Assembly (NCBI GenBank): GCA_964187785.1 | Contig: OZ076409.1 | Location: 13,704,001-13,768,000 of the forward strand | From: Amphiscolops sp. MND2022 | Lineage: Eukaryota | Length of the DNA stretch: 64,000 nucleotides | Direction of reading: 5' to 3' | Part shown: piece after piece, positions 7,301 to 31,300 of the stretch | Layout of the letters: every line of letters begins with the position of its first letter | How positions within the stretch are numbered: the first letter of the stretch is position 1 | Made by a program: the position numbers and the translations under genes | The notes under the pieces: model-generated | Seen by the model: the letters and a program-made list of their open reading frames with translations, nothing else | What the model was told of the DNA's origin: nothing | Database searches by the model: none

Positions 7301-10300
7301 CTGTGCATACGGTCAGCTGGCGCCTTCAGAAGTTTGCAGGAACTAATTGGTACGAGAGCGTACCATCGTCCACTTAGGATTAAGTGGTTTTGAAGGCTCT
7401 AATTTGAGATCGGACCATGAAATAGCTTCGCTAGCAAAGACGATAGTGAAATAATTACCATAATTTTTGGGTTTCAGTTGTTTGAAGACCTGATAGATGT
7501 CTTGGACAAAGAGATGAAGCTGGGCGATGTAGTCACTGATGAGTACAACCAGGTCCACTACCAAGAAGAAGAAGAGGACGACGAGGAGGAAGAGCAGGAG
7601 CAACAGGACGGGGGTGCAGATGCAGACGGGGAAGAAGATGGCCCCAATGCTGGCCTCACCCACCAACAGATAGAAGAGGCAGACATGTGAGTTTATTCAT
7701 TCCCTAGTGGGGGTGTTTTTCCCAACGAAAACTGAGAAAAATCTGGGGTCTTATCTGTTAATCCAACACATTAGGCGCCGAAAATTTAATGCCTACCCCA
7801 ATATGAGCGATGAATTTCAGCTGCAATTAGATTTACCAAATACTGCAATTTGATTGGTTGTTACTATTAATTCAATGATAATTTTACTTGACCGCTCAAC
7901 TGGGGGGATTAACAGGAAAATCCAAAATCTGTATCTCTTGTCCGTCATCATTAGGTTCCTTTAAAATGAAAATATTTCATGAGCGAGTAATATTGCGAGG
8001 GTTACAAAAAGACGTTCAATTAGCTCAATTAGCATGTGCAATAACTTTCGACGGAGCTAGTGATAGATCGTTTGTTTCTTTTCCTTTTGCATACAAATGA
8101 AGTGGTGCAAATTTGAAAGAGTTTTTGAATTTCAGTGGCGTAACTCATGAATCTGTGAGGATACATGGCGAAGACAGGTTGGCGGCAGGTGTGGCCACTG
8201 ACGACGCCTCAGTTCCGGCCTCTGCTTCGGCCAGAAACGACTCTGCCACTGAGAAGACAGAGGAGGCCGACATCGATCTGTGAGTAGCCAAAGTTTTCAT
8301 TTCTGCGATGGTAACCGTGACTTTAGCCGCTCGATAATATAACCGAATGGTAATATAGAAGAATTTGCATGCATTGACTTTCGTTTACTCTGGTCGATTG
8401 CAAACTTATATAATAGTTTCATTTAAAGATCACTGTCGACCAATCACAATTGAGAATCCTATTCGTTTCTGCTATAAATTGTTTCTGCATTATTATCGAC
8501 CGGCTATACTCCCTATCACCTTCTGCGATATCAGGAATAATTTAGAATATGGAAGGAGGAGTTTTTTCAGCCAGTATCAGACGAGTATGTTCCTTACCTA
8601 CTGAAAAAGATTCAGATATTTTGTTCGGCAGTGAGTATGAGCGTGAGATTTAAATTTATCGTTCTCGAGCTGCCGACGACAATCTTTGACAAAGCGAACG
8701 TCCGCCGCCGCCGCATCAATTAAGCGAACGGGTATTAACTATCTGTACGCCGAGAGCTTCGCCTCTGTTCAAATACGATTGCGAAACGTCATATACACCT
8801 GGTAGTTGTGTTCTTTTGTTCAAGTAATGAAGCATATTGTCCGGGAAAACCAAAAACAGTGGAAACTGGTAGAATGATTGATTTTGCGTTTTACAATGAA
8901 TTGACCGGAGTGTAAACTTATTGAGACAATGTATGTTTTTGTTTATGAACTTTGAAGTTAATGAAAATTGTAGCCTAAAGCAGAAATAATACTGAGCCCC
9001 GCAGTAAATTTTTGTAAATTGCAAATCTATTGAATTCTTTTTCAAAGTGAAATACATATATATTGGACATATACAACAGGCCAAACTGTTGAGGAAAATT
9101 GAATTGTTTTTTTGAAACTTCTGAAACTTAATCTCTCTGAATTTTTTAGAAGAATTTTTTTGTATGGAGATTTGAATACATGTAAGTTAGTGAATCGGTA
9201 TATGAAAATATATATTTCGTTACATTTAAAAGGGTAGATATGTAAAAAAAAATCGGTATACAAAAATATGCTTCATTGTAATCCTTCTCTGAAAAAGAAC
9301 GCAGGCCCGGACATGCTAGGGATATCTGTGTATTCCATATACAGAATTTTTTGCATAAAGTGGGTTTCAAATGAATTTGATTTGTATGATCATGGTGTAG
9401 GTTGGCTAGATGTGATGACGAAGAACTGAGACAAGCGGCTCTCAGACAAGAGACCACAGAACAAGTGTTCAACTGGCCCAGTCTCGCCAGGGCCAAAGAA
9501 CTCTGGTTTGTTGCTCTTTTGCGCCAAAAACTATCTGTTCTGTTCTACTGTCTCTCTCTCTCGCTCTCTATTCGAACTAACGCATCTGTTGTTTGGTGTT
9601 TGGCCCTGTTTTGTTTCAAAAGCCATCCAGACATATAATGTTTGAACTAAATTTCGCAAGCATCATAACCTATTTGTTCTAACGATAATATGAAAAATAA
9701 TTTCAGTAGCTCATACTTAACTTCAGTTCTGAACAATTTCTGACTGCAAAATATTCGATGTGAGCTTGCCAACTTGGTCCGTAACATTTTTGTTTTCTTG
9801 AATGATTGTTTGAACAGATTAACATAGCATTCAGGTTAAGTCATAGCTCTCCGTTAGCCGATGATACCATTGTCAAGCATATTTTTAATATTTTTACGCG
9901 ACTTTAAATTTTAAAACGGGCAACTTTTCCGACTAGAGTGTCTTGACAAAACTCTCTAGGAGCTAAGGTTTTTGCACAAAGCGAACTAGTATTCGCTAAT
10001 CAATCGTCCACAGAGAGCTCCACCCGTATTCAATTGTAAAACAAAAGCCATCAAAGAGTACTACGAAGCTTATAGTGCACAACACAGTTTTGACGTCGCT
10101 AATTTTTTTCGCTAATGGCTAAACCGCTATTTTTAATATTTCTGCTTTAGCAGGGATATTATTGTAACCTCAAACTTTCTACTTTTTTTTCAGTACAAAT
10201 TTTTCGGACGATCTGAATAATTCAGATATTTTGTTCGGCAGTGAGTGTAAGCGTGGGAAAGCTGCCGACAACAATTCAATTCTAGTGCGATGGAACGAGC

Positions 10301-13300
10301 GAGTGGTAATTATCCATTCGTATGCTGACGTCATTGAGATGAAGCGAGCGAATGTTCGTAATTGTGCTTTCGTTGCCCCGAGTTATTGAGATGAAGCGAA
10401 TGAGTGTTAATTATTCGTTCGTTGAGAGCTTCGCCTGCATTCAAATGCGAATGCGAAACTTCGTCTACGCTTAGTAGTTATATTGTGACGTCATGATGCA
10501 TGACATCAAGAATTTTATATTTGCTAAACTTCGTGACCTAATAGCATGACAGATGTCATTCTAATCAGAAGTTAATACTTCATTATCAAAATGCTAATAT
10601 TTCATTATAAATGTAATCCCTCCAAACTTCATCCTATAATGATTTGAAGTCTATTTAATCTTATTATTGATTGATGTACTAACTAATTCTGTATAATCAG
10701 AGTAACTCGAATGTTGTAATCAACCAGTACTCTCATCTTGAAGAGAAAGTAAATCTGAGATCTCAGTCTAAGTAGTACTCCTCAGTTCAGTGAAAGTATA
10801 GCTAGCTAGACGGTATTCTGTTAAGACTTAGAAAAGAACTTCTTATGTACTTCTTAAATGAAATAACATCTAACATAAGACAAGTCTTAAACAGCTCAAT
10901 TGGTGCGACCACGAAAATTCTCTTCTCTCTTCCTCTCATACCTCAACTTCATTCTTCTTGTACACAATTTCTTAACTTTCTCATACGCTATTTCTTCGTT
11001 CGACACACTGTTTCACCTCCTCTTTCTATTGTATATCGATACTAACTTCTCTCATGGTTCTGACTACGTCTTTTCGTAATTCCTGTCAGTTACAAATTTT
11101 CGGTTCTGACTGCGTACTATCGTAATTCCTGTCAGCAAAATTTTTGGTTCTGACTACGTTCACACGTAATTCCTGTCAGTTAATTTTTCGTTCCAACCAC
11201 TACAAAGTGAATTCGTGTTGGTTTCCTTTTCATTTCCGTTCCAACCGCAGACGTGCGATTCGTGTTGGTTTTTCAATCGTGCTATCCGGCGATTCCTGCT
11301 AGTTAAATACTCTGGTTCTAGCCGCTTGGATCAACTCCTCTCAGAGTTGGCACATAACATAACATTTTCTCTCATCTCATAAAATAACATCTTTCCTCCT
11401 TTCAACTCTTACAATACTCATAACTATCTTTTTCTCTAACTCTCTAATACACTATAAATTTTCTCCTTTCTTAAACACTGCCGCGGATCAATAATACACA
11501 TTTCACCTTTAGAACTTTTAATAGTACACATTTCACTTCTAGAACTCTATAATTAACCTTCAGTACAAAATTTCAGTATAACCTTTTAGTACAACATTTC
11601 AGTATAACACATACCAAAATACAATCCAAAAATTTCATATAATTATAGTACATTATTTCTTTTGTTAATGCCTTCAGCTGATAAAATAGTACACTTCTTA
11701 ATTCTTCTTTGGTTCTCTCTTGGTATCCTTGCTGGTATTGCACTTTTCTTTGACAGATTTTTAGTCCCTTTTATACCAAGATTATAATATTTTACATTAA
11801 TATTTTACAATAGAATAACAAAATATTAACCCAAACTTTATATAACTCTTAAGAATTATTACCCTATATAACTCTTAAACCACTCTTATTTTCTATGATA
11901 CAAGCTATAATACTTCCTCTTTTTGGCATTTTTGGAATATATTACACAATTTGTACCTTATTATCACTGACATCCAATAAATTCCTGCTCTTACCTTTAA
12001 CCCTAATCACTGTTTTCCTACAAATAGCATTCGTAGATATAATACTTCCATACCCCATCAATTTTAACACAAAACACATTTTCACCCAATATCTATTTCC
12101 TATAGTAAACAATTTCTACTATGATTTGTAACGAAATTACATAATGCTTCCAAATCCATTCACATTTTCTTCACAACAAAGATCTTTTCGCTCAACCACC
12201 CATGATATAACACCCTTTTTACATAACCTAATCTATCAGTACACCAATCCACTTCCATTTGAAACAGAAACACATTCTATTCATACAATATCATTGCTTC
12301 GAGAACACTTAGATGCATACCTTTATTACTTTAGATACAAAACATTGGAAATCACACAATCACAACAACCCTTCCAAGTCATTTTCAATCCAATACCAGG
12401 TATTAACAATGGAACCTTCTATAGAACTATCCATCCTCGAAACTTAATTTTACCAATTCAAAATATTTTCACAAGCTACATTAACCAACTTATTGAACAT
12501 AATGAAAATTTAGACACACCTATATACAGACCATCTCTCCTCGAAGAATTGAAAGAAAAGGTAGACCTTTTTGAAGTCCCAGATTTAGATACAAAAATAA
12601 TACGCCACAACAACCCTCACTACTGGCTTCAACAAGATATTTTACAAGTAACAACTTTTCAATACAAATTCTTCAAAAATATTACACTAGATGATGATAC
12701 AATACCACAAATTAAAGTCTTCTCTCACTTTCTTTTGAAATTCTTCAGATTTAATTATCAACTGATATGGGAACCAAAAGACCAGAATGCATATATACAT
12801 TTTCCTCAAATACTAAATAAAACTGAACTTTTACCATTTATCATTCAAAACAACTCCAAACATCCTTATTACAAAAACTTCACTACACTCCATCCATCTC
12901 ACATTGAAGCTATAGAACTTAATACCGATTTTCTTATAGAACAATCTGAAACTTCAGATAGCCGACCTTATACAAACTTATTTCAAAACAACACAATGGA
13001 AGAAGAAAACCAATCTTCTGAAATTTCTGATAATCCACACTATACGCACTCAACACAAGACCACAACATTACCGATGAAAACGTAATTCAACATCAACCA
13101 ACAACTCCAAGACATACATCCCAAATAACACATGATCCAACAGAATCAGTACAAGACACAATTACAAACCCACCTAATACTTCTAGTACAACTACGGACT
13201 CCAATGCTCTTCAAGTACCTACTCGAAATATCACAGAAACTAACACTCATCTTTTCAATCAAGAAAACCCTTCTACTATCTCTATGACTAATGACACTGA

Positions 13301-16300
13301 AACACAATCATCTTCAATACACCAGACAATAACACGAAACTATGATCCACCACCTCCCCCATCTATTCACTCCACTCATAGTACCCCACACAACTCACCA
13401 CAACAAGGATCATCTAACACCTTTTTTACTCAACAACCTCCCTTAAACGAAACCCAATTTCAAACAACCACTCCCCCAATACAATCACCTCAAACAATAC
13501 CATATATTCCTGCTCAAATACCCGTACAATACAATAATCCTCCTACATTAACTATTAACACTCTACATACTAACCCTATATCAAACGTTACAACTTCTAG
13601 TACATTATCAAGACCTCCTTTACCATTAATTCAGAATAACCCACTTATGTACAACCTCACTAGTACCAATATACAATCACAACTTAACACAAATAATACA
13701 CAAACAAACTTAAATGTATTACACTCTAATACCCATCATCAAACTCATCTTCCTTCAACTATTACACATCCACCTCCACATATACAATCAGTTCCAATAC
13801 AACCTCAAGTCAATGTCCTAAATATCCCACCTACTTCTTCCAACCCTTCCACTTTACACACTATACCTCCAAATACAATACCTCCATCTACCATTAATAC
13901 ACCTACCTATATTAATTCTGCTACATCAATTTCAGAACCCATTAAACCTTTTGATGGTTTAGACCATAATTATACACCAGAGGAATACTTACAGCATATT
14001 GAGGCCCGCGTTACATTTTCGCTAGGCTTACAACCTCATACTACTCATGAATACAAATTTTGGCATGCTCGCCGAATGGCTTTTATACAATGCTCACTCA
14101 CTGGAACTGCCCTCAGTTGGTATATCCGATTAAATGACACTTACAAACAAGATTGGCACGCTTTTGTACAAGCTTTCAAAAAACAATTTTCATCACAAAA
14201 GAACGCTTATTATGCACAAGTTGAAGCTCTTAGTTTAACAAAGAAGGACAACGAAACTGTTCGTCATTTTGCCCTTAGAGTTCAACAACTTGTTGAAAAA
14301 GGATGGTGCAATGAGAACGCATCAACTATAAATCTCAAATGCAATGAAATTTTTACAAAAGGACTACCCAAAAATCTTAAAGATTTTGCAAACAAACGAC
14401 AAGTTAAACATACTTCTACTGTTTTAGAACCTTCGATACCTTTTCATACACTTGTAAAACTTGTAGATGCTGAAGACATCGCAAATGACAAGATACGTAC
14501 ACATGATCTCACTCTTGAAGTTAATAACCTTACAAAACAACTACAATCTCAATCCTTAAATCAACAACAAACTGACCAAATTATGTTTACACAACCACGA
14601 GACCCAAATAATAAAACAAAACCCGCTTACAAAAAATACTGCTCCTACTGTCATAGAACAAATCACTCTATCTCTGCCTGTTTCAAAAAACAAAGAGATG
14701 ATGAAGACAAACGCGATAGATATGCAAGATCAAAATCCCCTCAAAAATCCTTCGTACAATACTTTCGTTCATCCTCCAATGATAGAACACAAAGATATGA
14801 CACAAGACCAAACGAATATCACACTAGATACCGTAGTCGAAGTACATCTCGTCATGAGTATCAAAAACCTAACAGACAACGATCTATTTCTAGAACTCGC
14901 TATAACTACGATAGAACAACTACTCCTCCACACTATACCAGATCTCGCTATGACAACTACCAACGTGATTCACGTTCCCATCGTTCACCATATAGATCTT
15001 CCTATAGATCACCCCACAAACGTGATTCACACTCCCGTTATAGATCACGATCATACTCAAGAGACAACAACTTTTCACGCTATACTTCTTCTTATAGACC
15101 ACCATCTAGACCTAGGGATTCTCGATATTCTCGGTCCCGCTCACACTCTCAGACACGAAACAAAATAAATACCATACAACAACAAAACTCTAACGATCCA
15201 ATCAATTTCGAAATCCACATGTATCATCCAACCGAAATGGCAAATGCTTTAACACCTACAAGCTGGTTCTACTCTTTATATACACATACACCTTCAAACC
15301 AAATTCATCGTGACTTCCCTTCAAGACTTGAAATTTCCTTCCTCCTTGATAGTGGTGCGTCAATTTCTGTCTTAAACCACCCTACCTATATTACTATTGC
15401 AAAGCTTCTTAATATTAAACAGACTTCTTCTCATAATTCATCTAAAACACTTACCGTTGCAAACCAAACAGAAGTCCCTATTTTACACTATATTACCATT
15501 ACCTTAAATACAACTATTGATGATAATTCACGTCAATTTACAATTCCATTTGCAGTAGCTGATATAAAATACAACATTCTTGGAACACCCTTCTTTGAAG
15601 AAAACATTCAAAATATCAATATACAAGATTTTACATTACATTTCAAAAACCACTCAAGAGTATACCCAAACTATGCTAAATTCACTTCTTTACTATCCAA
15701 AGACTATCCATACTTTTCTTACATTTACAGAATAAACTCCAAAACACAAATCCGTTTAAAACCAAATACTTCCAAAATTGCACATTTTCCTATAAATAAC
15801 TATTATAACCTCCATTTCTCAACAACACCACAAAAACAATTTTTTCCCACAATTCCACACACTTACTTTTCCTCCAAATTTCGTACAACCTTCAATTTTA
15901 TTGAAGTCTTCACAGACGACAAACCAGACACTTGTGCTACAATTATACAAAACTCTACAAATCACATTGCAACACTACCTACAGGACACATTGGTTATAT
16001 TGAAGTTCCAATAACAAATGAAAAACCCAAATATTATCAAGTCAATGACATTAACACACTTATTCATAATGTTACTCATACTTACCATCCTGAAATTACA
16101 GAAATTATTCCACCCACTAATTATTCAACAACTACAGAACAACAACCAATATCTCCAACACAATTTTCATTAAATCAAGTATTAATGACTGACGCTGATT
16201 CATTGCCACATTCACCTTCTCTCTATAACGTACAACCTACTTCTCATTCCTCAAAACCACGAGTGTTTCCTTCATTACCATATTCACCAGAGAATCTAAA

Positions 16301-19300
16301 ATTCATAAATAAATTCAACTTTCAATTCTCTGACCTTACAGACACCGAGTATATCACACTTTGCAACTTATTACTCAAACACAAAACCTGTTATGCTACT
16401 CATAAAAACGATGTTGGTAAAATTGCTACTCCTTTCCGCATTCGTCTTAAACCCAATGCTCAACTACTTACACAACGTCCATCTAAAGTACCAATTCATT
16501 ACCGTGACAAACTTAATACTCTTCTCAAAGATTTAGAAAAACACAACATTATAAAACAAATTGGTTCCTCACCTCAAGACAAACCTGTTTATGGTACAAC
16601 GTATTTAAATCCTCTTATCATTATACCAAAAGGTGACTCCATAAAATGTGTACTTGATGCACGCCACCTCAATTCCAATACAGAACAATCCGACGAATCT
16701 TGGCCTATTGAACCTCTTGCTCCACAACTTGCACGAGCAAATAAAAAGTACAAATCAGCCATAGATCTCATGTATGCATATGCACACACACCTCTTGACG
16801 AAGAAACAATTAAACTCACAAGTTTCTCGTCAGGTGACAAACTCTTCGCCTTCATACGAGGCTTCTATGGTCTTAAAGGCCTTCCAAATTTTTTTACCAA
16901 ACAAATGTCCTCATTCTTCAAAACACTTATTGAACAAGGTTTTGCCCTTGTATACATCGATGATATTTTACTCCTTTCAAACTCTAAAGAACACATGTTT
17001 CAACTCATTGAACAACTACATAATATTAGCACGAAAAACAATCTTAAACTTGCTCCAGAAAAATCCTTTTTCATGCTCCTCAAAGTCAAGTTTTTAGGAC
17101 ATGAAATAGGTTATAACACTATCAAACCAATACACTCCAAAATTTCAGCTATACACAAAATCCCTTCACCAACAGGCAAAGTTGCTCTTATGAGTTTCAT
17201 AGGTGCACTCAATTTTTACACAAAATTTATAGACAAACTCCATATTAATCTTAAACCATTTTATGATTTATTACACGAAAATACCCCTTGGAAATGGACT
17301 GATGACCATGAACGTTTATTTCAAACCTTAAAAAACTCTCTCACTGCAGATACAGAACTTACAATTCCCAATACAAAACATCCTTTCTTTATTACCGTAG
17401 ATGCTTCCCTTATTGGATTAGGTGCTGTCCTTTTCCAATTAAATGACCACAATCAAATGAAAGTAATATCCTACAATTCTCGAATATTAAACCCTCAAGA
17501 ACAAAAACTCTCTACTCTTGAACGCGAACTTCTTGGTATAGTACACGCCCTTCAAATCTATGAATTTATTATAATTGGATCACCACATCCTATCCATGTT
17601 TTTACAGATCACAAACCTCTTTTACATTGTTTCACAAAAAAAGGAAATCTTAGTCCTCGCTTTTATAGAGCACAAATGCAACTTACAAAATTTTCAAAAC
17701 TCAAAATAATACATACTCCAGGAAAAAATCTTTCTGTTGCCGACCTACTTAGTCGATCTTTTACAAAAGAAGAATTGCAAATAAATCAACTCAAACACAA
17801 ACACCTTCCACCCCAGATTGACTTCACAATACTCCAAAACAACAAACTTCAACCTGTACATTACTTAATTAAACACGAAGAAGTTTTACCACATCAAAAA
17901 CATGACTCTCACCCTATTCTTGCTGATTATGGTACAGACCAATTTTCATTACGTATTAATGACAAAGGAAACGACATTATAGTTAAACCTTTAAACTCAT
18001 TTTCTTTCAATGCCATCACTCCTTTTCAAACAAAATTTAAGGCTCCTGCCAAAAAACATAACAAATCCCTTCACCAACAATCTCTTCTTCTCAATGATAC
18101 TGACGTTACTAGTGATGATGACGATCACATATATACTCGTATTCCAAAAACCAATTCCTCTTTCACACATGACACCAAATTAAAAGAACAAGAAACATTC
18201 TCTACCATAACCAAACCAAAACCTACCATCACACCAAAATCTAACTCCGAAACTACTTCTGCTATAGATGTACAGACAAATTCCACTTCTATGACACATT
18301 CTTCTCAATTAGTACCTTTTTATGACCCTTCCTTCTTCAAATATAAACTATATTTTCAAGGTTTCTTTCTTCCAGATGATTACTCCTTAGACCTCAAAAC
18401 ACTTCAAGTACAACAATCTCAAGACCCAGTTCTTCGAACTGTCCATTCTTGGATAATTAATAATGAAAAACCTGAATTTCTCACACCTCTTATTACTGGT
18501 AATCTCTTTTTACACGCTTATTACAAAAGATTCACACAACTTTTCATTGATACCACTACAAACCTTATAAGTCTTCACACAACACACCCACTTCCTCCTG
18601 AAACACACCCTATTTCTATCCCACACATTCTACACGATACTATCAGAATTTGTCTTCCTTTTAGAATGTTTCAAACAGTATTTAACAAGTTACATGACCA
18701 TTCTCACACCGGTATCAAAATCACGTATAACACTTTTTCTCAATATTATTACATCCCGTATCTTGAAAAATGGCTTTCTATTTTCATACATGACTGTCTC
18801 GAATGTCAGAAAAATAAACACTTTAACATGAAAATTCAAACTGCTCCTACACAATCATTTTCAGAACACGCTCCTTTCTTCAATTACAGAATCTCCATGG
18901 ATACAAAAGGACCTATAAACCCTCCTTCACAACACAAATCTTACATTCATGCCATTGTTGACACTTTCAGCCACTTTGTCGTTACAGTACCAATTAAATC
19001 CAATAACGCAAAAACTGCAGTCAAAACTTTATTACACCACTGGATTACAAAATATGGTCCTCCTATTTACCTTGTCACTGATCGAGGTACCGAATATGTT
19101 AATCAAGACATAGCTCACCTTTGTACACTTATGGGTATTAGACACTCCCCCCGAACAGCATACTCTCCTTGGGCCAATGGCCTTGTTGAAGTACAAAATC
19201 GAAATCTTGGCACACATCTTCGTATGTTTCTCCATAACACTCCTGAAAATTGGGCTTTCCAAGTACATATGTATGCCTATGCCCACAATTCACAACCGAT

Positions 19301-22300
19301 TTCAGAACTTAATGTTTCCCCTTACGAAATAGTTTTCCACACAAGACCCCGAATTCCACTTACATTTGATCTTAACCTCAATCGTAACACATCCAAAACT
19401 TGTATCTCACAATATTGTTCACAACTTCCAGAACACTCACACTACGATAAAACTGATTTAAACCCCTTCTTCTACAAAACACTATCCAAACCTATTCCAC
19501 AATGGTTTCTTGCTGTCGAAACTGCAATGCTTCAAATTTACTCAACTGTTTACTACTATACTCTCAAAAAACTCAATTCTCACGCTTATATTACCAAAAC
19601 CTACCATGAAGGTAAACCCCTTCCTATTGGTACTTTTGTTCTCAAACGTCATTTTGCACACGTTCACTTTTCAGACAAACTTAAACCCCTTCGAATTGGT
19701 CCATACAAAATTCTTGACCGATTATCCGATGTTACATATGAACTTCTAGCACAAGATGGTTCTACATTACATGTTCACCGAAATCATATAATCCCTTATT
19801 ATCCAAAAGAACCACTACTATACCCACACCTTCGTAATTTTATGCGTTTCTCTGATTCAATTAAATTGGACATTCCAAAACCCATTCAATATGCTAATAG
19901 CGACTCATCACCTTTTAATTCCGATGAATCCCTTTCTGACGATACATCAGTTTCGGATAATGACCAACTCTTATCACCAAACAACATTTTTCCACAAACT
20001 CCATCAAATACTAATCCATCATCAACAATTAACCTACCTTTTCAATCAATTCCTCAAACCCCTAGTACTAATCACTCCCGTGACAGAACTCGTCACCAAT
20101 CTCAAAATCAATCTCCATCACCTTCTTTTACAAATAATAGAGATACAAAAACTCATTATAACTTGAGACAACAACCAAAAATGGATTATCGTATTTTTAT
20201 ACCACCATCGAAATTGTAAAACATCCATTCACTTTCAAATCACCACTCCAATCAGTCACATAAAATTTGCAAATTTCTGATCAAACTGGCCTACCAATCT
20301 GGATTCTTCATCTGAAACATCTCCCTCTGCTCCTAATATACCTTCTCCATCTGAATCCTCTGTTTCAAACACAACTACAAATAGTAATGTAACACCAATA
20401 ACTCCTTCAAAACGACCAAGATCTCATATTATAACTACCTCTCCAACACCATCTTCTCATACACATTCAACTCATATTAGTAGACCACCTATTGCTGAAA
20501 TACCTTATACTCCTCGCTCTCGATCTCAACCGTCATTTGTCCACATACCACACCCTCATACTGTAGCACATCTTGTAAATTACAAACAACCAACTGCTAT
20601 TAAAACAGCCCGTGTTTCACCTAACCTTCCATCTAAACTAGATATTGTACCACTATCTGATATTGAATACACACCTCTACCTACATTACACTTACCATCT
20701 GAATCTTCAAACCCATCTCAACTTTACCCTCCTTTAAAACCACTTAGACATCCTTCCACTTCTCTTTCTAACTTAATAGACTCTCCTTCAGAATATCTAC
20801 CACAAACTGATACTTCAGGTTCTGATATAGTACCACATCATAGATATAATCTCAGACCTCTTCCCAATAGACGCCTGAGTGCAACCGACTCATCCACTCT
20901 TAATTTTTCAGCACTTTCTAGCAACTCAGCATTACGCCTTCTTAGACAACACGCTCAACCTTTATCTTCTGATACAGCACACTCTTCTGATTTTGTTCCA
21001 CAATCCTATCTCACTTCTGGATTAGACACAGCTTCATTACTTTCGTCTGACGTACAAACTGCATACTTATCTGGCAACCTCTTCTCTGAAGTCTTAGTAC
21101 CTACACCTGTTGCTCCTCACGTACGAATACCTGAATACTACACATATGATCAATCAAGACCGCCTACTCCTAATTTCGCAGACTACCCTTTACGTGTAGA
21201 CGGTGTTACTATATATGACCCACAAAACGATCCCCGTTTCCCTCTTTTAGCAGAACGATTTATTACCACAAATAACTCTCTCTCACATAAAAGAAAAGAA
21301 ACTGAATTAAAACGACTTCAAACTCCAAATCTAGAAATAAAATTTGAAGTCAAAGTTAAGTTTCAAGGTCTTAATCCACATCCCATATTTCACGTTGCAA
21401 AAATTGAACACAAAACCACTCCTGCCCCTTTTGAGGTAATATTCGTCGATTTCAACCGTGATCCTGAATTAAATGACCTAGCTTATGGCAAAATTGTTTT
21501 CTACAACCCCTTCTCTGGTCTCAAATATACAACTTCCTTTTAAAACACATGTTCTACTTATTATAACTCATGTTTTTCTCTTTTCTATCAACCCTTATAT
21601 TACATCTTCCATTCCTATCAAACCAACAGATGATGACAAATATCTTCCATCTGATGACCCAAATATAACAAATCTCATGGTTTCGCATTATGACTGTGCA
21701 AAACAACATAATCTTCGTCAATTTAACCTTCTCAATGTCAAACAATGTACCGAAGCTCCTTCTAACATACAACATGCAAACATTCAAGCTCGAGTTTATG
21801 TTAGAGCAAAAGCTAAACGTATTCGCGCTTTCAAATGTGAAGCATATGCAAAAAAAAGAACGAAAAATCTGCTTCCAAGGTAATGTTAAATACAGACGTG
21901 TTGACAGAACTGTTTGGAATCACAATACAATGCCACTACCTATCACACTTGATCCTCTTGAATGTAAAAATATTATTCGACACCTTAATGGAACTGATAA
22001 TAAAATATTGAACAATCTTAACTATAACAAAACTTTTACATTACTTGAAGACCACTACTTTCAAGAACAATTAGAACGATTTCAAACTCCTTTCACTGTT
22101 TACCAATTCAACAAAATGTATACAGGTACATTTACCTATATGCCCGCTGACAAAACTTGGATATATGATCCACTTCGAAACCCTTACCATAACTGTCCTG
22201 CTCATCACCAATTTGAAGTCAACTTAGTAAGTTGGCGTCTCGCTATATCTGAAATTGAACTAACATACGATGATACACAAAATGTTATGATCATTGATGG

Positions 22301-25300
22301 TCATACTCTTCCATGTTACTTTGCTGATGGTTTTTGCAAACCTACCACAAAAACTCCTTTCACACTTGTATGGTTTAGTGATGACTTTTGTCTTATCTTT
22401 ACTTTACAAGACTTTATTGGACGCATGACCAAAATCGATGATCGATACTGGATAGAAACTGATTCTTTCGTACACTCTGCTACTCCGAAGAAATCACCTT
22501 CCTTTGATGGTATCAAAGGTACTTCTTATCCGCACGTCCGTGCTCCTCATACTGAAACTCCACATAACCCAAGTCTTTCTCGTTTTGAAATTTTTCCTAC
22601 CGCTAACACCTTTTGTGGAAAACCTGAACCTCTATATTCTACTCAATATTCTGACCTTTTTGTTACTTACACAGAAGGATTTAACATGCATACAGGACAA
22701 CCAAACCCCACTTCTATAATTAATGAATACATCTCTGGTAAAATTGTATTAGACAAATCAAATTCTAATAATAAATATATCTTTCCTGCATTGAACGTTT
22801 CTAACAATTTCGCTACCATAGATTACGATGCACATATAAACACTAAAATTGACTACACGATTAACCATGTATTTCGCTCAATGACTGTTCAAGAACTTAA
22901 TACCCTTCATACAGTATGTGAATTAGAACGCAACCAACTTCTTACAATACTTGCAATGTCGGTACAAAATCCTCAACTTGCTGGCTTTCTTCTAACAGGA
23001 AATCGCAGTAATTTCCTTTACGTTGAAGGATCTACTGCTTGGTTATATGACTGCCCACACTTTCTTTCACCGTTATACATTGCTGATCGTTGTTTCGATC
23101 GAATTCCTATTCATTTCAAGGATACTCTTATGTACGTTGACCCAATTACAAGACAAACATATGACTATGCCACTCCTATTACATGTGACAATAACCCGAA
23201 TAACATTATTGAACTCGATCCTGATTCTGATGACCAAGATTTTTATATTCTTGGACCCGAACCTATAAAACGAAAACCTCCACTTATGTTTACTCCCTCT
23301 CAAATTAAAACTACAATACGCCCTAATACTTTTACAGCTCAAGATGCTGGTATATACTCAAATGCAGAACTAAATCAATTTTGGAATCGAATTCTATTTT
23401 CAAAACACTCTGATACTACACTTCAACTCTTAGGAAAAGCTCTTAGCTATTCCTTTATTTCTTCTAATACACCTGATTATGATGCAAATGAACCACATGG
23501 TAACCCATATAATACACTTCGGATTGGACTCCATGATAGATTAATTAACCTAACTCCCCTTTTTACTCCTACATGGTTCTCTGATGCCTTCATCGCTTTA
23601 TTTGGATATCCATGTTACATTTTGACACAATGTGGAATTTATTTTTCCACATATCTATTCATACAAACAATGTTAACTCTCATTGTTAAATTATACAAAA
23701 CTATTTCCATAAAGTACAATCTTAAACAAAATATTACACTTTTGAACTCTATTGCCCATGGTTTTCTTAATATTCTTACGGCAGACATGCTCCATGACCT
23801 AAAAAATGCTCGTTCAAAATCAACTTCTAAAAGTTCACAACAAATGTCAAACATTACTGACAACCCATTAGATGAATCTTCCTATAATCTAAATGATCCA
23901 AATGGTACTACTCCAAATCCAACTGGTATTACTTCACCACCACCTTTTTATACAAAACGTCCAAATCGGATTTCCAAAATGACTCGTTTTAAATTCCTTC
24001 CAAAACGAAAACAATATAATGTTCATTCCAAATCTAATCCTCAATCATCTTTACCACATTATTCTTCAGTTACCACAAATCCAAATGATTACACATCACC
24101 TGTCAATGACGAGATCGACACTCCTGTCCGCATATATTCAAAAACAAATTACTCCTTCACTCCGCCATCTTTTCAAACTAATCATTCTGACTTTTTCACT
24201 CCTCCGACATAGCTGCCACCTACTACTCTTCGATACAATTTCCTCACATAAACAATCTCTCAAAAATTTCATCTACCTTCTTCCAAAATAGAACAAAAAA
24301 TTGAAATAAAATTGCATTTGAACCAACCCGTCAATATTAAAATCGACATTTCGACTCCAAAAAACCTTTGATAAATCTACACGTTAGTGTTTTGTTTGAT
24401 ATAATACTTTCAGAAAACATTTCTTCAAATGACTCAAGCACAACTAGATTTCCATAATATGACTCCTCAAGTCACGCAAGAACAAATCGATCTCCAAAAC
24501 CAACTTGAAATACATACTGCTGATCTTATAACAAAACCTCTTTCAAATGACTCGCCTATTCTCTTTCTTGATACCAAAGAAACCACTGATGATCCCATTC
24601 AAGATCAAATGGAACACCAAAATATTCCAGAACAACAAAATATATCTACAATACCTACAAAAAATAAAACACCTTCAGACCCTGATCAATCTCCTGATAC
24701 TCCTCCGCCAACAAAAAAGAAATATGAAATTATGAAAGACCCTGCTTTTCTTTCATCACCCATTTATCCACCTATAATACCTACAAAACCGCAACTCTCT
24801 ACAACTCGTGATGACTATCTAGTACCAATTCTCTCTAATCATCGTTTCTCATTCAAATCACAACTAACTTCTCTCTACATGCATCCTACGGACTATACGT
24901 TCAAACTTTATGATAAAAATCAAGATTTCTTCACATCTATTGCCTCCAAAATCATGGCTCCCTACCACTATTGGCTTCATAATGGAATCAAAATATTTTC
25001 TCTACAATTCAATTTTCTTCGCCCATCAATATATGATCTCAAAACAGATGAAAATGATCCATCTTTTCTATCTACAGCACAAAAAGCTACCCATCATTTA
25101 ACGTATACTCGCTTTCTTCAGCATTCAAAACCTCAAAACTATATTTTTGCGAACTACAAATATACTTCTCCTTTCACAATGACAAATTTATACACGATAG
25201 ATCACTCGAAGATAACTGGCTATCTTCGCAACTATGACCCAATCAAACAATACTTTTGTCTGCTACCTCATAATGATACGTCTCGTCCTCTTATCGTACC

Positions 25301-28300
25301 TCAAGAGTATCTCATCCATTTTGATGACTTTCTGTTGCCTTGCAACATTCCAACCCAAATTGTCAAGCCTTTGACAGTTATCAAACACCTTGTTTCTACG
25401 CCGCTAGATGATAAAGATACGTCACATTATACAGCCTTGTATAAACAGTCCTACTCTTATAATGAACTTTTGTTTATAGCTGCAAAAGTCATTTCTTACA
25501 TGGTTCGCGCTGAACAAAGTCTCGAAATTCAAACTGAACACCAACGCCAAAATAAAACTCGTAAAACTCCTCCACCATCTCCTATAAAACAAACTACCAG
25601 CGAAAAACTCGCCACTATCCTCAATAATCGTACTCTGAAAAATCTAACCCAAATGTTGGATCCATATAAACGAAACTCTTCAGATTCTCCAATCACTACT
25701 CTTAACCATCTCATTCATTGCCATAACCGAACCTCACAACTCCTTCAAACTCTAGATCTCGATTCGCAACGTATCACACAATCCTCTCAAGCAATTCAAT
25801 CGGCGCTTGAATCTATGAATACTCTTTTTAATACTCTTAATATCAACTAAATCATCTCTCAGGTAATACAAATTTCTTTAATTTTCCCACAATATTGGAC
25901 ATTTTTGGACACCTTTTTCTGTTGTACACTTTCATTCCCAAATACAGGTAACATTCTTCATTTATTTTCACACATTTTTAGTACAAAAACTCTCCTTTTA
26001 TTATTTTACTTGGTCTCTCTACTATGGCATTCTTTAAAAATCTCTTTTGCAAAAACCTAACTACTATCCATAATATAGCACCAACGTATATTACAAATTC
26101 TAGCACCCAATTATAGAACAAAGAAATTTTTGATCAGTATCTCCAAAACTCAGACTCCTTTTGTTTTAGAAACTTCTCTTCTTCCTCCTGTTGGACCTCG
26201 TTCCACTTCCGCAACATCCAAATTTTATCAGGATTTAACTGTTCATTCTTATCCAAATGGCTCCGACCCAGCAATCTGAAATAAAAAAACTTGTTCAGTC
26301 CACAGAATCTAAGGTCCACAGTCTTAAGGCTGCAATTTTTCACACGATGGCATACAAAATGTCACTGGAGATAAACAAAGGCGATATTACTCTCCCCACC
26401 CGCCGCTCCTTTCTCAAGGTCTTATACAACGTTTGCCAAATTCGCAAGAAGGATATAACTTTCGAACAATATTACCGTATCCATGTCCATGGCCCGAAAA
26501 TTGCCATTTGTGAAATAACTTCCGATACAGTATTTGTCTTGAATTCTGCCTTCACTGCGAAGGACAACTATTTTCGCGTCGCCATCGATGAGGCCATCGA
26601 TGCATTCAATGCCGTTCTTTTGGACTTTGGGTACACCCAACAACTCCAAAAATACGACCCAACAACCCATCAAGTCCACCCGCAGCCCAAACACCCGTTC
26701 TGGCCAAAACCTCATACGTCAAACAAATCAACTTAATCAACTCTTACTCACCTCCACTTCTTCAAACTCCTGCTTCTCGATGACTTCACTTTCTCCAATT
26801 GCTGCTTCTTGATGACTTCACTTTCTCCAATTGCTGCTTCTCGATGACTTCACTTTCTCCAATTGCTGCTCCTCGATGACTTCACCTTCTCCAATTGCTG
26901 CTTCTCGATGACTTCACTTCCTCCATGTTCTAGATGACTTCACTTCCTCCAATTGCTACTTCTACATGACTCCACTTTTCTCAACTGCTTCTTCTTGAAG
27001 ACTTCCTTTTCAAACTTGTATTCGTATTTAATGAATTTTAACGAATCATTAACCTATTTACGTCTATTTAACCTCTCTATACTCAACCATGATTCTAATC
27101 ATTTAATAATAATCATTGTATAGTTCCTATTACTTTAGTTTAGTTACAATATTGGATGTAAAATCTATAATCACGTATAATCTTCTAATATTCATTAGTG
27201 CTTAATGTGTAAAATACAACAATTCATCCTATATTACTGAACCTCATCATATATTCTCCAATATTTAACACAATATATTCTTGAGTTCTTTCCTTTTTTA
27301 CAGTACAAGATCTCTTCTTATTGTACGACTGTTTTACTCTAAGAATTTGAACTGAAAATTTGAAGTTTGATTCCTTTTTTTGATCGTTCAATATGTCTCT
27401 AACTTTGAATGAAAAATGAACTCAACCTTTGCAACTTTTAGACTTCTTCACACTTTGTTCACAACCCGCCAATGTTTGTTCACACCTCATTGACAACTTC
27501 AACTATCGTTCTTCAATACCAAAAAGTTTTCATTTTGACTGCTCTTTTGAAGAACACCGAGAAAATTTTTAACAAAGCCGATGGAGCTTTTCACAAACAA
27601 TATATAAAATAAGTTGTCAATCAATAACTCGAACTCCAAATGTCACATCCATAGATTGACAGAACGTTGCACCAATGTGAACCGTCATACGATTAAGAAG
27701 TTCTAACCGTCCTAGGTTGTTCTCACTCCTTAAGTATGGTACTCTTATATCACATGAAACACCCAACACCTATAATACAAAAAACATTCAACACCTCTAA
27801 TGTAAAGTACAAAACCCAAAACCCTCAGCACACTTGGATATATTTTTCAAAACCCGGTCGATTGTGACGTCATGATGCATGACATCAAGAATTTTATATT
27901 TGCTAAACTTCGTGACCTAATAGCATGACAGATGTCATTCTAATCAGAAGTTAATACTTCATTATCAAAATGCTAATATTTCATTATAAATGTAATCCCT
28001 CCAAACTTCATCCTATAATGATTTGAAGTCTATTTAATCTTATTATTGATTGATGTACTAACTAATTCTGTATAATCAGAGTAACTCGAATGTTGTAATC
28101 AACCAGTACTCTCATCTTGAAGAGAAAGTAAATCTGAGATCTCAGTCTAAGTAGTACTCCTCAGTTCAGTGAAAGTATAGCTAGCTAGACGGTATTCTGT
28201 TAAGACTTAGAAAAGAACTTCTTATGTACTTCTTAAATGAAATAACATCTAACGTAAGACAAGTCTTAAACAGCTCAATATTTTCTTTAGTCCGAGAAGA

Positions 28301-31300
28301 ATTAAAGGCGGTGTAAACTTGTACAGTGATTACATGTAATTGTGCGCTAAATAATGATTGAACAGGAGTTTATTGATATTCCAGAAATGACTTTATTATT
28401 GAAAATAAAAAAGGAGTGTAGCGAACATTCTACGTCTGATTGGAAAATTGTTTTGAATAACCGGCTTTTTACCATTGTCAACTTCCATAGGGGATAAGTT
28501 CTCTCAGTTTGAAAAATTGTTGATTATTTCCTGCATTTTAGCTTTTCAAATGTCTTTAACTCTCAAAATGGCTTATTTCAGTATACTTCCATAGGGGATA
28601 AGTTCTTTCGGTTTGAAAAATTGTTGATTATGTCCAGCATTTTAGTTTTTTATTTGCCTTAGTCTCAAAATGGCTTACTTTAAGTGTACTTCCATAGGGA
28701 ATAAGTTCTGTCGGTTTGAAAAATTGTTGATTATTTCCAGCATTTTAACTTTTCAATTGTCTTTAACTCTCAAAATGGCTTACTTTAGTGTACTTCCATA
28801 GGGGATAAGTTCTGTTGGTTTGAAAAATTGTTGATTATGTCCAGCATTTTGGTTTTTTATTTTTCTTTAACTCTCAAAATGGCTTACTTCAGTATACTTC
28901 CATAGGGGATAAGTTCTTTCGGTTTGAAAAATTGATTATGTCCAGCATTTTAGTTTTTTATTTGCCTTAGTCTCAAAATGGCTTACTTTAAGTGTACTTC
29001 CATAGGGAATAAGTTCTGTCGGTTTGAAAAATTGTTGATTATGTCCAACATTTTAGTTTTTTATTTGTCTTTAACTCTCAAAATCGTTTACTTTAGTGTA
29101 CTTCTATATGGAATAAGTTCTCTCGGTTTGAAAAATTGTTGATTATTTCCAGCATTTTAACTTTTCAATTGTCTTTAACTTTCAAAATGGCTTACTTTAG
29201 TGTACTTCCATAGGGGATAAGTTCTGTTGGTTTGAAAAATTGTTGATTATGTCCAGCATTTTGGTTTTTTATTTTTCTTTAATTCTCAAAATGACTCACT
29301 TTAGTGTAATTCCAAAGGTGATAAGTTCTGTCGTTTTTAAAAATTGTTGAATATTTCCAGCATTTTAACTTTTCAATTGTCTTTACCTCTCAAAATGGCT
29401 TACTTTAGTGCACTTCCATAGGGGATAAGTTCTCTCGGTTTGAAAAATTGTTGAATATGTCAAGCATTTTAGGTTTTTTTATTTGTCTTTAACTCTCAAA
29501 ATGGCTTACTTTAGTGTACTTCCATAGTGGATAAGTTCTCTCGGTTTGAAAAATTGGTAATTATTTCCTGCATTCTAGCTTTTCAAATGTCTTTAACTCT
29601 CAAAATGGCTTACTTCAGTATACTTCCATAGGGGATAAGTTCTGTCGGTTTGAAAAATTGGTGATTATGTCCAGCATTTTGGTTTTTTATTTTTCTTTAA
29701 CTCTCAAAATGACTCACTTTAGTGTAATTCCATAGGTGATAAGTTCTGTCGTTTCTAAAAATTGTTGAATATTTCCAGCATTTTAACTTTTCAATTGTCT
29801 TTAACTCTCAAAATGGCTTACTTTAGCGTACTTCCATAGAGGATAAATTCTCTCGGTTTGAAAAATTGTTGATTATTTCTAGCATTTTAACTTTTCAAAA
29901 GTCTTTAACTCAAAATGGCTTACTTCAGTAAACTTCCATAGGGCATAAGTTCTGTCGGTTTGAAAAATTGTTGTTTGGTCCAGCATTTTAGTTTTTTATT
30001 TGTCTTTAACTCAAAATGGCTTACTTTAGTGTACTTCTATATGGAATAAGTTCTGTCGGTTAAAAAATTGTTGATTATGTCAAGCATTTTAGGTTTTTAT
30101 TTGTCTTAACTCAAAATGGCTTACTTTAGTGTACTTCCACGGGAGATAAGTTCTCTCGGTTTGAAAAATTGTTGATTATTTTCAGCATTTTAACTTTTCA
30201 AATGTCTTTAACTCTCAAAATGGCTCATTTTATTGTACTTCCATAGGGGATGAGTTCTGTCGGTTTGAAAAATTGTTGATTATGTCCAGCAATTTAACTT
30301 TTCAAATGTCTTTTACTCTCAAAATGGTTTACTTCAGTATTCTTCCATAGGGGATAAGTCCTCTCGGTTTGAAAATTTGTTGATTATTTCCAGCATTTTA
30401 ACTTTTCAAATGTCTTTAACTCTCAAAATGGCTTATTTTAGTGTATTTACATAGGGGATAAGTTCTGTCGGTTTGAAAAATTGTTGATTATGTCCAGCAA
30501 TTTAACTTTTCAAATGTCTTCTACTCTCAAAATGGCTTACTTTAGTGTACTTCCATAGGGGATAAGTTCTTTCGGTTTGAAAAATTGTTGATTATTTCCA
30601 GCATTTTAACTTTTCAAATGTCTTTAACTCTCAAAATGGCCTATTTTAGTGTACTTCCATGGGGGATAAGTTCTGTCGGTTTGAAAAATTGTTGAATATG
30701 TCCAGCAATTTAACTTTTCAAATGTCTTTAACTCTCAAAATGGCTTACTTCAGTATACTTCCATAGGGGATAAGTTCTGTTGGTTTCAAAAATTGTTGAT
30801 TAGGTCCAGCATGTTAGTTTTTTTGGTTTTAACTCTCAAAATGGCTTACTTTAGTGTACTTCCATAGGGGATAAGTTCTCTCGGTTTGAAAAATTGATTA
30901 TTTCCAGCATTTTAACTTTTCAAATGTCTTTAACTCTCAAAATCGCTTACTTTAGTGTACTTCCATAGGGGATAAGTTCTCTCGGTTTGAAAAATTGTTG
31001 AATATGTCAAGCATTTCAGCTTTTCAAATGTCTTTAACTCAAAATGGTTTACTTCAGTATACTTCAATAGGGGATAAGTCCTCTCGGTTTGAAAATTTGT
31101 TGATTATTTCCAGCATTTTAACTTTTCAAATGTCTTTAACTCTCAAAATGGCTTATTTTAGTGTATTTACATAGGGGGTAAGTTCTGTCGGTTTGAAAAA
31201 TTGTTGATTATGTCCAGCAATTTAACTTTTCAAATGTCTTCTACTCTCAAAATGGCTTACTTTAGTGTACTTTCATAGGGGATAAGTTCTCTCGGTTTGA

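Follow-up and report, generated by a model that had tools for sequence, protein, structure and literature searches.

A high-copy Ty3/Gypsy retrovirus-like family in Amphiscolops with a Met-less gene between pol and env and a proposed leaky-scanning mode of env expression

How is a long gene translated that lies between pol and env and holds no in-frame ATG in any of the lineages that carry it? This question is raised by a 17,794-bp long terminal repeat (LTR) element at positions 10484-28277 of a 64,000-nucleotide stretch of DNA from Amphiscolops sp. MND2022 (assembly GCA_964187785.1, contig OZ076409.1, positions 13,704,001 to 13,768,000 of the forward strand), which was analysed as a whole and is called the window here. 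An earlier note on the window had placed all open reading frames (ORFs) of the element on one strand in the order sORF39, sORF78, a Gag-Pol of 2691 amino acids, a Met-less ORF of 420 codons, Env, ORF473 and ORF159, and the ORF coordinates confirmed this order and the sizes; every ORF of at least 100 codons that we treat as real lies on the + strand. We refer to the Met-less ORF as ORFX. Our analysis favours a recent insertion of a high-copy, retrovirus-like Ty3/Gypsy family in which ORFX and env would be translated from one subgenomic mRNA by leaky scanning, an account that is read from sequence and that we hold to be reasonably probable.

The element has many relatives in its own genome, a 1.07-Gb assembly of 1,929 contigs; the counts given here for this genome cover the best candidates scored from longer first-look lists. 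All 40 scored LTR matches were 99-100% identical (1,060 first-look candidates) and all 100 scored ORFX matches were open (8,965 candidates), while stops were absent from 87 of 90 scored matches to ORF473 (8,796 candidates) and from 146 of 150 to ORF159. Five full-length copies of the lineage to which the window element belongs, designated lineage A, lay ~2% apart. ORFX, ORF473 and ORF159 were open in all five of these copies and Env in four, and two of the five had all five long ORFs open together. At least five diverged sublineages, with Env 53-80% identical to that of the window copy, were present in the same genome, and all of them had numerous near-identical copies. Three Env clusters, 79%, 65% and 54% identical to the window Env, each comprised many copies 97-99% identical to one another, and Env was without stops in 49 of 50 scored members of the first cluster, 47 of 63 of the second and 31 of 50 of the third. 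One locus each of lineages B, C and D was taken from these three clusters for comparison, together with lineage E, a group 90% identical to D.

In all five lineages, gag-pol is followed by a Met-less ORF of 418-488 codons, then by env and a further, post-env ORF, which has 449-528 codons and is truncated to 204 in the C copy. ORFX was 66% identical between A and B, 83% between D and E, and 35-39% in the other pairs compared. The B, D and E loci measured 18.1-18.8 kb, with LTR pairs 99.0-99.5% identical. At the lineage C locus (L012-L014), a 2.9-kb stretch holding the end of pol and the start of ORFX is found a second time, 98.9% identical, 12.1 kb downstream, and 172-bp repeats follow the truncated post-env ORF; this locus looks like rearranged or tandem elements.

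The genes in question lie in the window as follows.

20299..21543, + strand: ORFX, 414 codons from a conserved CTG, without an in-frame ATG; open and alignable in five lineages
21485..21850, + strand: 5' part of env, with the true ATG, the N-terminal hydrophobic segment and the first ~124 codons; assigned by its match to P0006, an intact Env
21851..24212, + strand: remainder of env in another frame, with PF24664, a C-terminal hydrophobic stretch and a long tail; assigned by its match to P0006

The stop-to-stop frame of ORFX extends over 420 codons (20281-21543) and, as in each of lineages A to E, contains no in-frame ATG. Similarity of ORFX across the five lineages starts at a Leu-Asp pair that is encoded as CTG-GAT with an A at -3 in every one of them, and CTGGA occurs in frame a single time per ORFX in each. 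Upstream of this CTG, the 6-44 codons that separate it from the preceding stop showed no conservation across lineages. Since CTG makes up 1.2-2.5% of the Leu codons in the elements, its retention in all five lineages, despite this rarity and near-saturated synonymous sites, points to selection on the codon itself. An A at -3 and a G at +4 are described as a favourable initiation context, for near-cognate codons as well (PMC5902531). Frameshifting or readthrough from pol into ORFX was rejected, as the frames do not overlap and stops intervene.

The interval between the pol stop and the env ATG, with a pol-env gap of 1,265-1,686 nt across lineages, is also poor in ATGs when all frames are considered. 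It contains 4, 4, 5, 4 and 2 ATGs in A, B, C, D and E, against means of 13.1, 10.7, 12.0, 10.1 and 11.2 in dinucleotide-preserving shuffles, and 0, 4, 6, 13 and 0 of 1000 shuffles, respectively, had as few. This corresponds to a 2-5 fold depletion in the five lineages. In gag-pol, env, ORF473 and ORF159 of the A copy, the number of ATGs was at or above the shuffle mean. Downstream of the CTG there are 4, 2, 2, 1 and 1 ATGs in A to E, all out of frame, which open mini-ORFs of 1-17 codons (29 in E). In A and B, the env ATG precedes the ORFX stop by 58 nt; in C and D, it follows the stop at a distance of 2-3 nt. Together, the conserved CTG and the ATG depletion suggest a bicistronic ORFX-env mRNA that would be translated by leaky scanning.

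In the scheme that we propose, ORFX and env would both be read off a single bicistronic subgenomic mRNA. A minority of scanning ribosomes would initiate ORFX at the CUG at window position 20299, with its A at -3 and G at +4, and the remaining ribosomes would scan ~1.2-1.3 kb that selection has presumably cleared of most AUGs, and would then initiate env at the AUG at 21485, within 58 nt of the ORFX stop. ORF473 and ORF159 lie downstream of the AUG-rich env and would therefore need other mRNAs, probably spliced ones.

The alternative that survives best, unlikely as we judge it to be, is that ORFX receives its start codon by splicing to a short 5' AUG exon in the leader or the first gag codons, and that the AUG-poor stretch is a side effect of composition. 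This would suit the absence of an ATG from ORFX in all five lineages, and retrovirus-like elements commonly splice their env and accessory mRNAs, as is described for the CERV protein of Cer1, a Gypsy-type element of C. elegans (PMC10309623). Splicing does not explain, however, why ORFX similarity begins exactly at the CTG while the 6-44 codons upstream are unconserved, nor why all five lineages retained a codon that accounts for 1-2.5% of Leu codons. In addition, there is no AG acceptor at the CTG, and a GTRAG donor was not found in the leader and gag start of A, B and D.

A coupling of stop and start, in which Env would be made by termination-reinitiation after translation of ORFX and not by leaky scanning, appears improbable. 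What makes this worth considering is how close the env AUG is to the ORFX stop, being 2-3 nt past it in C and D and no more than 58 nt away in A and B; in the latter two lineages, however, the AUG comes before the stop. Reinitiation after an ORF of 414 codons normally needs special signals, and none was identified. Neither the depletion of ATGs in all three frames nor the putative weak, non-AUG start of ORFX would be explained in this way.

The family's commonest Env cluster, of 603 member sequences, is represented by P0006, an intact Env of 911 amino acids, and a comparison with it clarified the structure of env in the window. Residues 1-127 of P0006 were identical at 123 of 127 positions to the frame that starts at the ATG at 21485, and P0006 from residue 123 onward was identical at 782 of 789 positions to the ORF at 21690-24212. 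The two frames meet near 21850, where the window copy has a one-nucleotide length difference that is absent from all four full-length A sisters aligned. The ORF at 21690-24212, which the earlier note had taken for the env gene, is thus best read as the downstream remnant of a frameshifted env whose true ATG is at 21485, and the window copy, its env being frameshifted, is not an intact element. The claim of recent multiplication stands for the family, with its many near-identical open copies; the window copy, itself a recent insertion, is env-defective. In the genome, 48 of the 50 best-scoring P0006 matches had an Env without a stop, open over 909-912 codons.

PF24664 (Monjiviricetes_fusion) was the sole Pfam family matched by Env, with E=3e-22 for P0006 and E=1e-19 for the Env ORF of the window copy, which suggests that Env is a fusion glycoprotein of the Monjiviricetes/chuvirus-like kind. 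Pfam gave no match of Env to the F-type Env family, the baculovirus/paramyxovirus F by which errantiviruses are strictly defined, and sequences in the PDB gave no match at E<=1. The most hydrophobic stretches of intact Env are at residues 17-41 and ~702-742, and the protein has 11 N-glycosylation sequons and 16 cysteines; these features fit a predicted type I membrane glycoprotein.

We then considered selection on the genes. Between lineages, omega (estimated by the Nei-Gojobori method, NG86) was 0.11 for ORFX, 0.075 for ORF473 and 0.06 for Env in the D-E pair, and 0.15, 0.11 and 0.09, respectively, in the A-B pair, which also gave 0.08 for Pol and 0.13 for Gag. For ORF159, the proportion of nonsynonymous differences (pN) between A and B was 0.24, against a saturated synonymous proportion (pS) of 0.81. 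Pooled pN/pS among the A copies was 0.11 for gag-pol, 0.08-0.12 for env, 0.09 for ORF473, 0.18 for ORF159 and 0.03 for ORFX (78 synonymous and 6 nonsynonymous differences). This evidence, in which the D-E pair and the comparisons within A count most, shows purifying selection on gag-pol, ORFX, env, ORF473 and ORF159, and strong selection on ORFX and ORF473. The differences among A copies being overwhelmingly synonymous, most of the 2% divergence seems to have arisen in replicating lineages under selection for every gene. The expectation that every ORF would be conserved in sister copies with dN/dS below 1 was thus borne out for these five genes and not for sORF39.

Selection on env implies that propagation of the family depends on Env and hence involves a membrane-fusion step, be it cell-to-cell or particle-borne; for the window copy, such a step could be feasible only with Env from another copy. 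We consider it very unlikely that the family is a purely intracellular retrotransposon in which env and the extra genes are recent passengers without a part in spread. The broken env of the window copy, between LTRs that are nearly identical, does indicate that env-defective copies can still insert, but the frameshift may date from during or after this copy's own insertion. Moreover, env omega was 0.06-0.09 between lineages that each multiplied, and env was open in 48 of 50 scored A copies. Finally, that the extra ORFs are chance open frames or decaying passengers is scarcely credible: although they match no known family and few TAG and TGA triplets are to be expected on a strand so poor in G (GC skew -0.2 to -0.6), such a composition does not make TAA scarce, all five lineages have open frames for ORFX and ORF473 that align at 35-87% identity with omega 0.03-0.15, and hundreds of scored copies are without stops, so that the idea is contradicted for ORFX, ORF473 and ORF159 and stands for sORF39.

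Several points weigh against the proposed expression of ORFX and env and the family history built around it. The account derives its transcripts, splice sites and start codons from sequence, and no convincing splice donor was seen in the leader, a GTRAG scan of leader and gag start giving none in A, B and D and one in E. A few AUGs persist in the stretch that would be scanned, and the Met-free, Ser/Thr/Pro-rich composition of ORFX could account for part of the ATG deficit. In C and D, where the env AUG is 2-3 nt past the ORFX stop, termination-reinitiation could contribute. As to selection, synonymous divergence (dS) is ~0.8-0.9 for D-E but >1.3 for A-B and deeper comparisons, near saturation, which makes the ratios rough, and the window copy takes part in each of the four comparisons within A, so that these are not independent. 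The 30 nt preceding 27863, the start of the 3' LTR, are not purine-rich on the coding strand and provide no clear polypurine tract. Functions of the accessory proteins are guesses, with no family, fold or motif linked to an activity.

What kind of proteins are encoded by the extra genes? ORFX consists to 36% of Ser, Thr and Pro, has no hydrophobic segment and contains basic motifs. An AlphaFold2 model of ORFX had a mean predicted local distance difference test (pLDDT) score of 48.2 and was confident only at residues ~292-414; the first ~290 residues were modelled as disordered, followed by two helices and a five-stranded sheet in which the means of 10-residue blocks were mostly at pLDDT 70-88. 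The best Z of this fold against 48,161 PDB chains in VIA-align was 3.1, a Foldseek search of BFVD was without a match at E<=0.001, and the ORFX profile matched no PDB sequence. A homologue search returned 222 proteins at E<=1e-3, and the best 120 listed all belonged to the same family and were without Pfam domains. With low confidence, we suggest that ORFX may be a regulatory or adaptor protein made along with Env.

Two further genes follow env.

24429..25850, + strand: ORF473, accessory gene 3' of env, conserved in five lineages
26257..26736, + strand: ORF159, accessory gene common to A and B only

ORF473 was 70% identical between A and B, 87% between D and E, and 36-43% between A or B and D or E. 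It has a conserved central block and no hydrophobic segment. Its AlphaFold2 model (17-row alignment) was set aside at a mean pLDDT of 36.1, the C-terminus being helical in an otherwise unreliable model. We found 279 ORF473 homologues at E<=1e-3, the best 120 listed again being all of the same family and without Pfam domains, and 676 matches of its profile at E<=1e-3 among 1.84 billion representatives, with most of the 150 listed being fragments of <300 amino acids. Against PDB sequences the profile gave a single match, at E=0.17. ORF473 may be a structural or RNA-handling factor, a suggestion that we make with low confidence. The ORF159 homologue was found in B only, at 65% identity. In its place, D and E have a different ORF of 313 and 283 codons, respectively, 57% identical to each other and with an omega of 0.26 in the D-E pair.

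Pfam at E<=0.01 gave no match for ORFX, ORF473, ORF159, sORF39, sORF78 or a 66-residue leader ORF (10845-11045), and member-by-member Pfam scans of the accessory proteins at E<=10 gave scattered sub-threshold matches only. In the ESM Atlas, the best score for ORF159 was 0.75 and ORF473 had no usable match; IMG/VR viral contigs contained no relative of ORF473 or Env. The accessory proteins are thus without a match to a known family or fold in the Pfam, PDB and Atlas searches.

The full gene set of the family, as predicted from these comparisons, is gag-pol, ORFX, env and ORF473, plus ORF159 in A and B. The accessory gene set proposed in the earlier note is upheld in part, with ORFX and ORF473 in all five lineages, ORF159 in two of the five, and omega well below 1. 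Of the up to five accessory ORFs counted there, ORFX, ORF473 and ORF159 are well supported, sORF78 is weak and sORF39 unsupported.

Gag-Pol is a single, fused ORF in the window copy and in three of the five full-length A copies overall.

12144..20219, + strand: fused Gag-Pol, 2691 amino acids, single ORF, with Pfam matches

Pfam matches above the curated cut-offs were Retrotrans_gag (residues 647-719), RVT_1 (1531-1655), RT_RNaseH_2 (1718-1813; 1718-1850 together with RT_RNaseH), Integrase_H2C2 (2175-2226) and rve (2247-2342), and there were two weaker integrase C-terminal matches, SH3_Tf2-1 being the one named. The translation shows a long N-terminal extension, a CCHC knuckle, an RS-rich region, a DSG protease motif and YIDD. 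Pfam gave no protease match in Gag-Pol, and the protease is known from the DSG motif alone. The predicted domain order, protease, reverse transcriptase (RT), RNase H and integrase, is that of the Ty3/Gypsy type. In the lineage B copy (L009-L010), gag and pol are in the same frame and parted by a single stop, which is either a copy defect or a readthrough site; they are continuous in A and D. A 202-codon frame (14560-15168, + strand) overlaps the RS-rich part of gag in a different frame, and comparable overlapping frames are present in B (246 codons, 43% identical), C and D; the 202-codon frame is probably a by-product of biased composition.

The boundaries of the element were set from a direct repeat pair with a spacing of 17,379 bp, found in a repeat search of the window.

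10480..10483 and 28278-28281, no strand: target-site duplication ATAT, left and right, read from both flanks
10484..10898, + strand: 5' LTR, 415 bp, TG...CA, from the repeat pair extended outward
10901..10914, + strand: primer-binding site, the TGG-initiated 14-mer TGGTGCGACCACGA, beginning 2 nt past the 5' LTR
27863..28277, + strand: 3' LTR, 415 bp, TG...CA, from the repeat pair extended outward

The two LTRs are identical at 414 of 415 bases, the sole mismatch being at 10875. A span of 17.8 kb between near-identical LTRs had been claimed before, and the measured 17,794 bp, together with the LTR identity and ATAT on both sides, agrees with it. LTR anatomy, a 4-bp target duplication and a primer-binding site are those of Ty3/Gypsy (Metaviridae) LTR elements. 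ARAGORN found no tRNA gene in the window.

How does this family compare with elements described before? Insect errantiviruses such as Drosophila gypsy and ZAM have an F-type Env, separate gag and pol, and a length of roughly 7-9 kb, and are not known to carry accessory genes. Like them, the present family consists of LTR elements that carry gag, pol and env and appear to need Env for their spread; it differs from them in that its Env matches PF24664. The organisation has more precedent than the earlier note, with its comparison to errantiviruses, assumed, as env-carrying elements and elements with extra ORFs have already been reported (PMC13524379, PMC5408684, PMC6431247, PMC10309623).

Ty3/gypsy elements with an Env of F type or gB type are described across most metazoan phyla, including a Chuviridae-like, gB-like glycoprotein beside gypsy POL in several arthropod groups (PMC13524379; Chary & Hayashi, eLife 2026). 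Like the elements with a gB/Chuviridae-like Env, the 'ancient errantiviruses', the family has a Ty3/gypsy Pol, the order gag-pol-env, a chuvirus-like/gB-like Env and many copies >98% identical. A PF24664 Env beside a gypsy Pol, with the link of such glycoproteins to Chuviridae and gB taken from PMC13524379, and multiple near-identical intact copies are features that it has in common with the gB/Chuviridae-type env-carrying Ty3/gypsy elements. Unlike them, as far as they are described there, it has a 1.27-1.69 kb stretch with ORFX that parts pol from env, two more genes after env, and a gag-pol-env region of ~12 kb; the word 'accessory' is absent from the main text of PMC13524379. The prefilter given in PMC13524379 for non-insect genomes allowed <=1000 nt between POL and ENV and <=10,000 nt overall. 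Because its pol-env gap and gag-pol-env length exceed these limits, the family may have been passed over, and published screens for env-bearing Gypsy elements may more generally miss families with a gene between pol and env.

Extra genes in Gypsy-type elements have precedents of several kinds. The novel CERV protein of Cer1, made from a spliced mRNA, is needed for export of the genomic RNA (PMC10309623); Cer1 resembles the present family in having an extra novel protein beyond gag-pol, a comparison made by description only. The planarian Burro elements are giant (>30 kb), abundant and Gypsy-like, with env homology and accessory coding capacity, and LTR elements are described as capturing ORFs between pol and env or 3' of env (PMC6431247). 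In Burro, the extra domains and env are within one polyprotein of >4,800 amino acids, whereas the extra genes here are separate ORFs without recognisable domains (PMC6431247). LTR elements of bdelloid rotifers carry varied ORF3s, including a GDSL lipase, a DEDDy exonuclease and a dUTPase (PMC5408684). These, too, are LTR elements of invertebrates that have taken up ORFs in addition to env or in its place (PMC5408684), but the rotifer extras are recognisable enzymes and those described here are not.

The closest parallels to the proposed translation of ORFX and env are found in other virus groups. In rice tungro bacilliform virus (RTBV), leaky scanning over 900 nt has been proven for ORFs I-III, with ORF I started at AUU and ORFs I and II free of AUGs; badnaviruses keep this layout, and the env of primate lentiviruses is expressed from mRNAs with two cistrons, rev-env or vpu-env (PMC5902531). 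RTBV, the badnaviruses and HIV-1 vpu-env have an accessory ORF upstream that is cleared of internal AUGs and whose start is weak or not an AUG (PMC5902531); in the present family, such a start is putative. As in RTBV, the upstream ORF is cleared of AUGs in all frames, 2-5 ATGs being present where 10-13 are expected. RTBV is, however, a plant pararetrovirus with ~900 nt to be scanned and an AUU start, and HIV-1 a vertebrate lentivirus (PMC5902531), whereas here ~1.2-1.3 kb would be scanned and the start would be a CUG, as judged from the sequence. Full-text term searches of the open-access literature found no description of the same organisation, or of leaky scanning in env-bearing retrotransposons.

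More distant relatives were found in metagenome contigs, six loci of which had an Env 27-31% identical. One of these, a 13.2-kb contig (L029), encodes gag, pol, integrase, a PF24664 Env that is 29% identical, and two ORFs after env (368 and 312 codons), neither of which is detectably similar to ORF473 (hhalign probability <1%). No large ORF was found between integrase and env in this contig. Genes after env may thus be common in the wider group, and ORFX looks specific to the clade in the genome studied here. The post-env ORFs of L029 (9651-12095) had sub-threshold matches only, to KIF21A_4th and YabA, which we take to be coiled-coil families.

Judged by functional analogy with complex retroviruses, the family has conserved genes beyond gag, pol and env. 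A wider reading, which we offer tentatively and with rather less than even confidence, is that it represents a 'complex' clade of invertebrate Metaviridae with three lineage-specific novel proteins, one of which would be co-expressed with Env from a CUG-initiated, AUG-cleared bicistronic mRNA, and that this clade, with thousands of copies in a 1-Gb genome, is still spreading in an Env-dependent manner. If this were true, the family would rely on a mode of translation for which proof has so far come from plant pararetroviruses, with a parallel in the vpu-env mRNA of lentiviruses. The ORFX-env design is the most distinctive and most testable feature of the family and makes a clean sequence-level prediction. 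It would offer a concrete, testable case of retrovirus-like complexity, that is, accessory genes and a dedicated translation mode, outside the vertebrate Retroviridae, in a family abundant enough to be studied through its natural copies. The accessory proteins, being without a known family, are candidates for new host-interaction or RNA-handling activities.

The remaining features of the element lie upstream of gag and downstream of ORF159.

10899..12143, + strand: leader of 1,245 nt with short tandem repeats, the stretch upstream of gag
11668..11787, + strand: sORF39, unsupported as a gene, without a detectable counterpart in the lineage B leader
11895..12131, + strand: sORF78, hydrophobic upstream ORF with its stop shortly before the gag ATG, its position kept in A-D
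26770..27009, + strand: 32-bp tandem repeat of 7.7 copies in the 3' untranslated region, differing in length among copies

The first ~480 nt of the leader were 75% identical to lineage B. A 44-bp repeat is present in three copies at 11056-11190, and a similar repeated motif is visible in the leader translations of B, D and E. sORF39 showed 2 synonymous and 4 nonsynonymous differences among the A copies. As for sORF78, an ORF that starts with ATG and stops no more than 60 nt from the gag ATG was present in A (78 amino acids), B (79), C (37) and D (78), and in the E copy there was none. The A and B versions were 38% identical (pN 0.41, pS 0.68), and the A copies differed at 9 synonymous and 3 nonsynonymous positions. 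It is possible, on weak grounds, that sORF78 is an upstream ORF acting on gag translation. The five A copies have one of two forms of the 3' untranslated region (26700-27600), the first in the window copy, A3 and A5 and the second in A2 and A4, separated by many indels, some of which are inside the 32-bp tandem repeat. The C-terminus of ORF159 varies with the form of this region, giving 158 or 165 codons.

The composition of the element sets it apart from its surroundings. GC skew of the coding strand was -0.22 to -0.62 in 2-kb windows over 10001-28000, compared with values between -0.08 and +0.14 for the flanking sequence up to 60 kb; the coding strand contains ~10% G, in the window copy (10484-28277) and the sister copies L021-L028. 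Singleton differences among the five copies, expressed per source base, were strand-asymmetric, with T>C at 0.0214 versus A>G at 0.0070, C>A at 0.0083 versus G>T at 0.0011, and A>C at 0.0070 versus T>G at 0.0018, while G>A (0.0253) and C>T (0.0248) were equal. As gains and losses of G and C are roughly balanced, the composition looks like the equilibrium of a one-strand mutation bias of the reverse-transcription type. The G-poor coding strand also leads to a low glycine content, a mere 0.4-2.7% of the proteins encoded by the element (12144-26736), and this scarcity may be one reason for the poor performance of predictors on the accessory proteins.

In the flanking sequence, a 104-bp satellite of 35 copies with an 85% match occupies 28481-32107, starting ~200 bp past the 3' LTR. 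A retroelement fragment at 59858-63643 (+ strand) has a DUF1759 match (5e-05), a weak aspartyl protease match and an RT 24-25% similar to that of the Gypsy Pol, and is probably BEL/Pao-like. An open frame at 42373-42780 (+ strand) encodes the start of a P-loop NTPase of the NUBPL/ParA kind (PF10609, 2.6e-07) and is likely to be a host exon.

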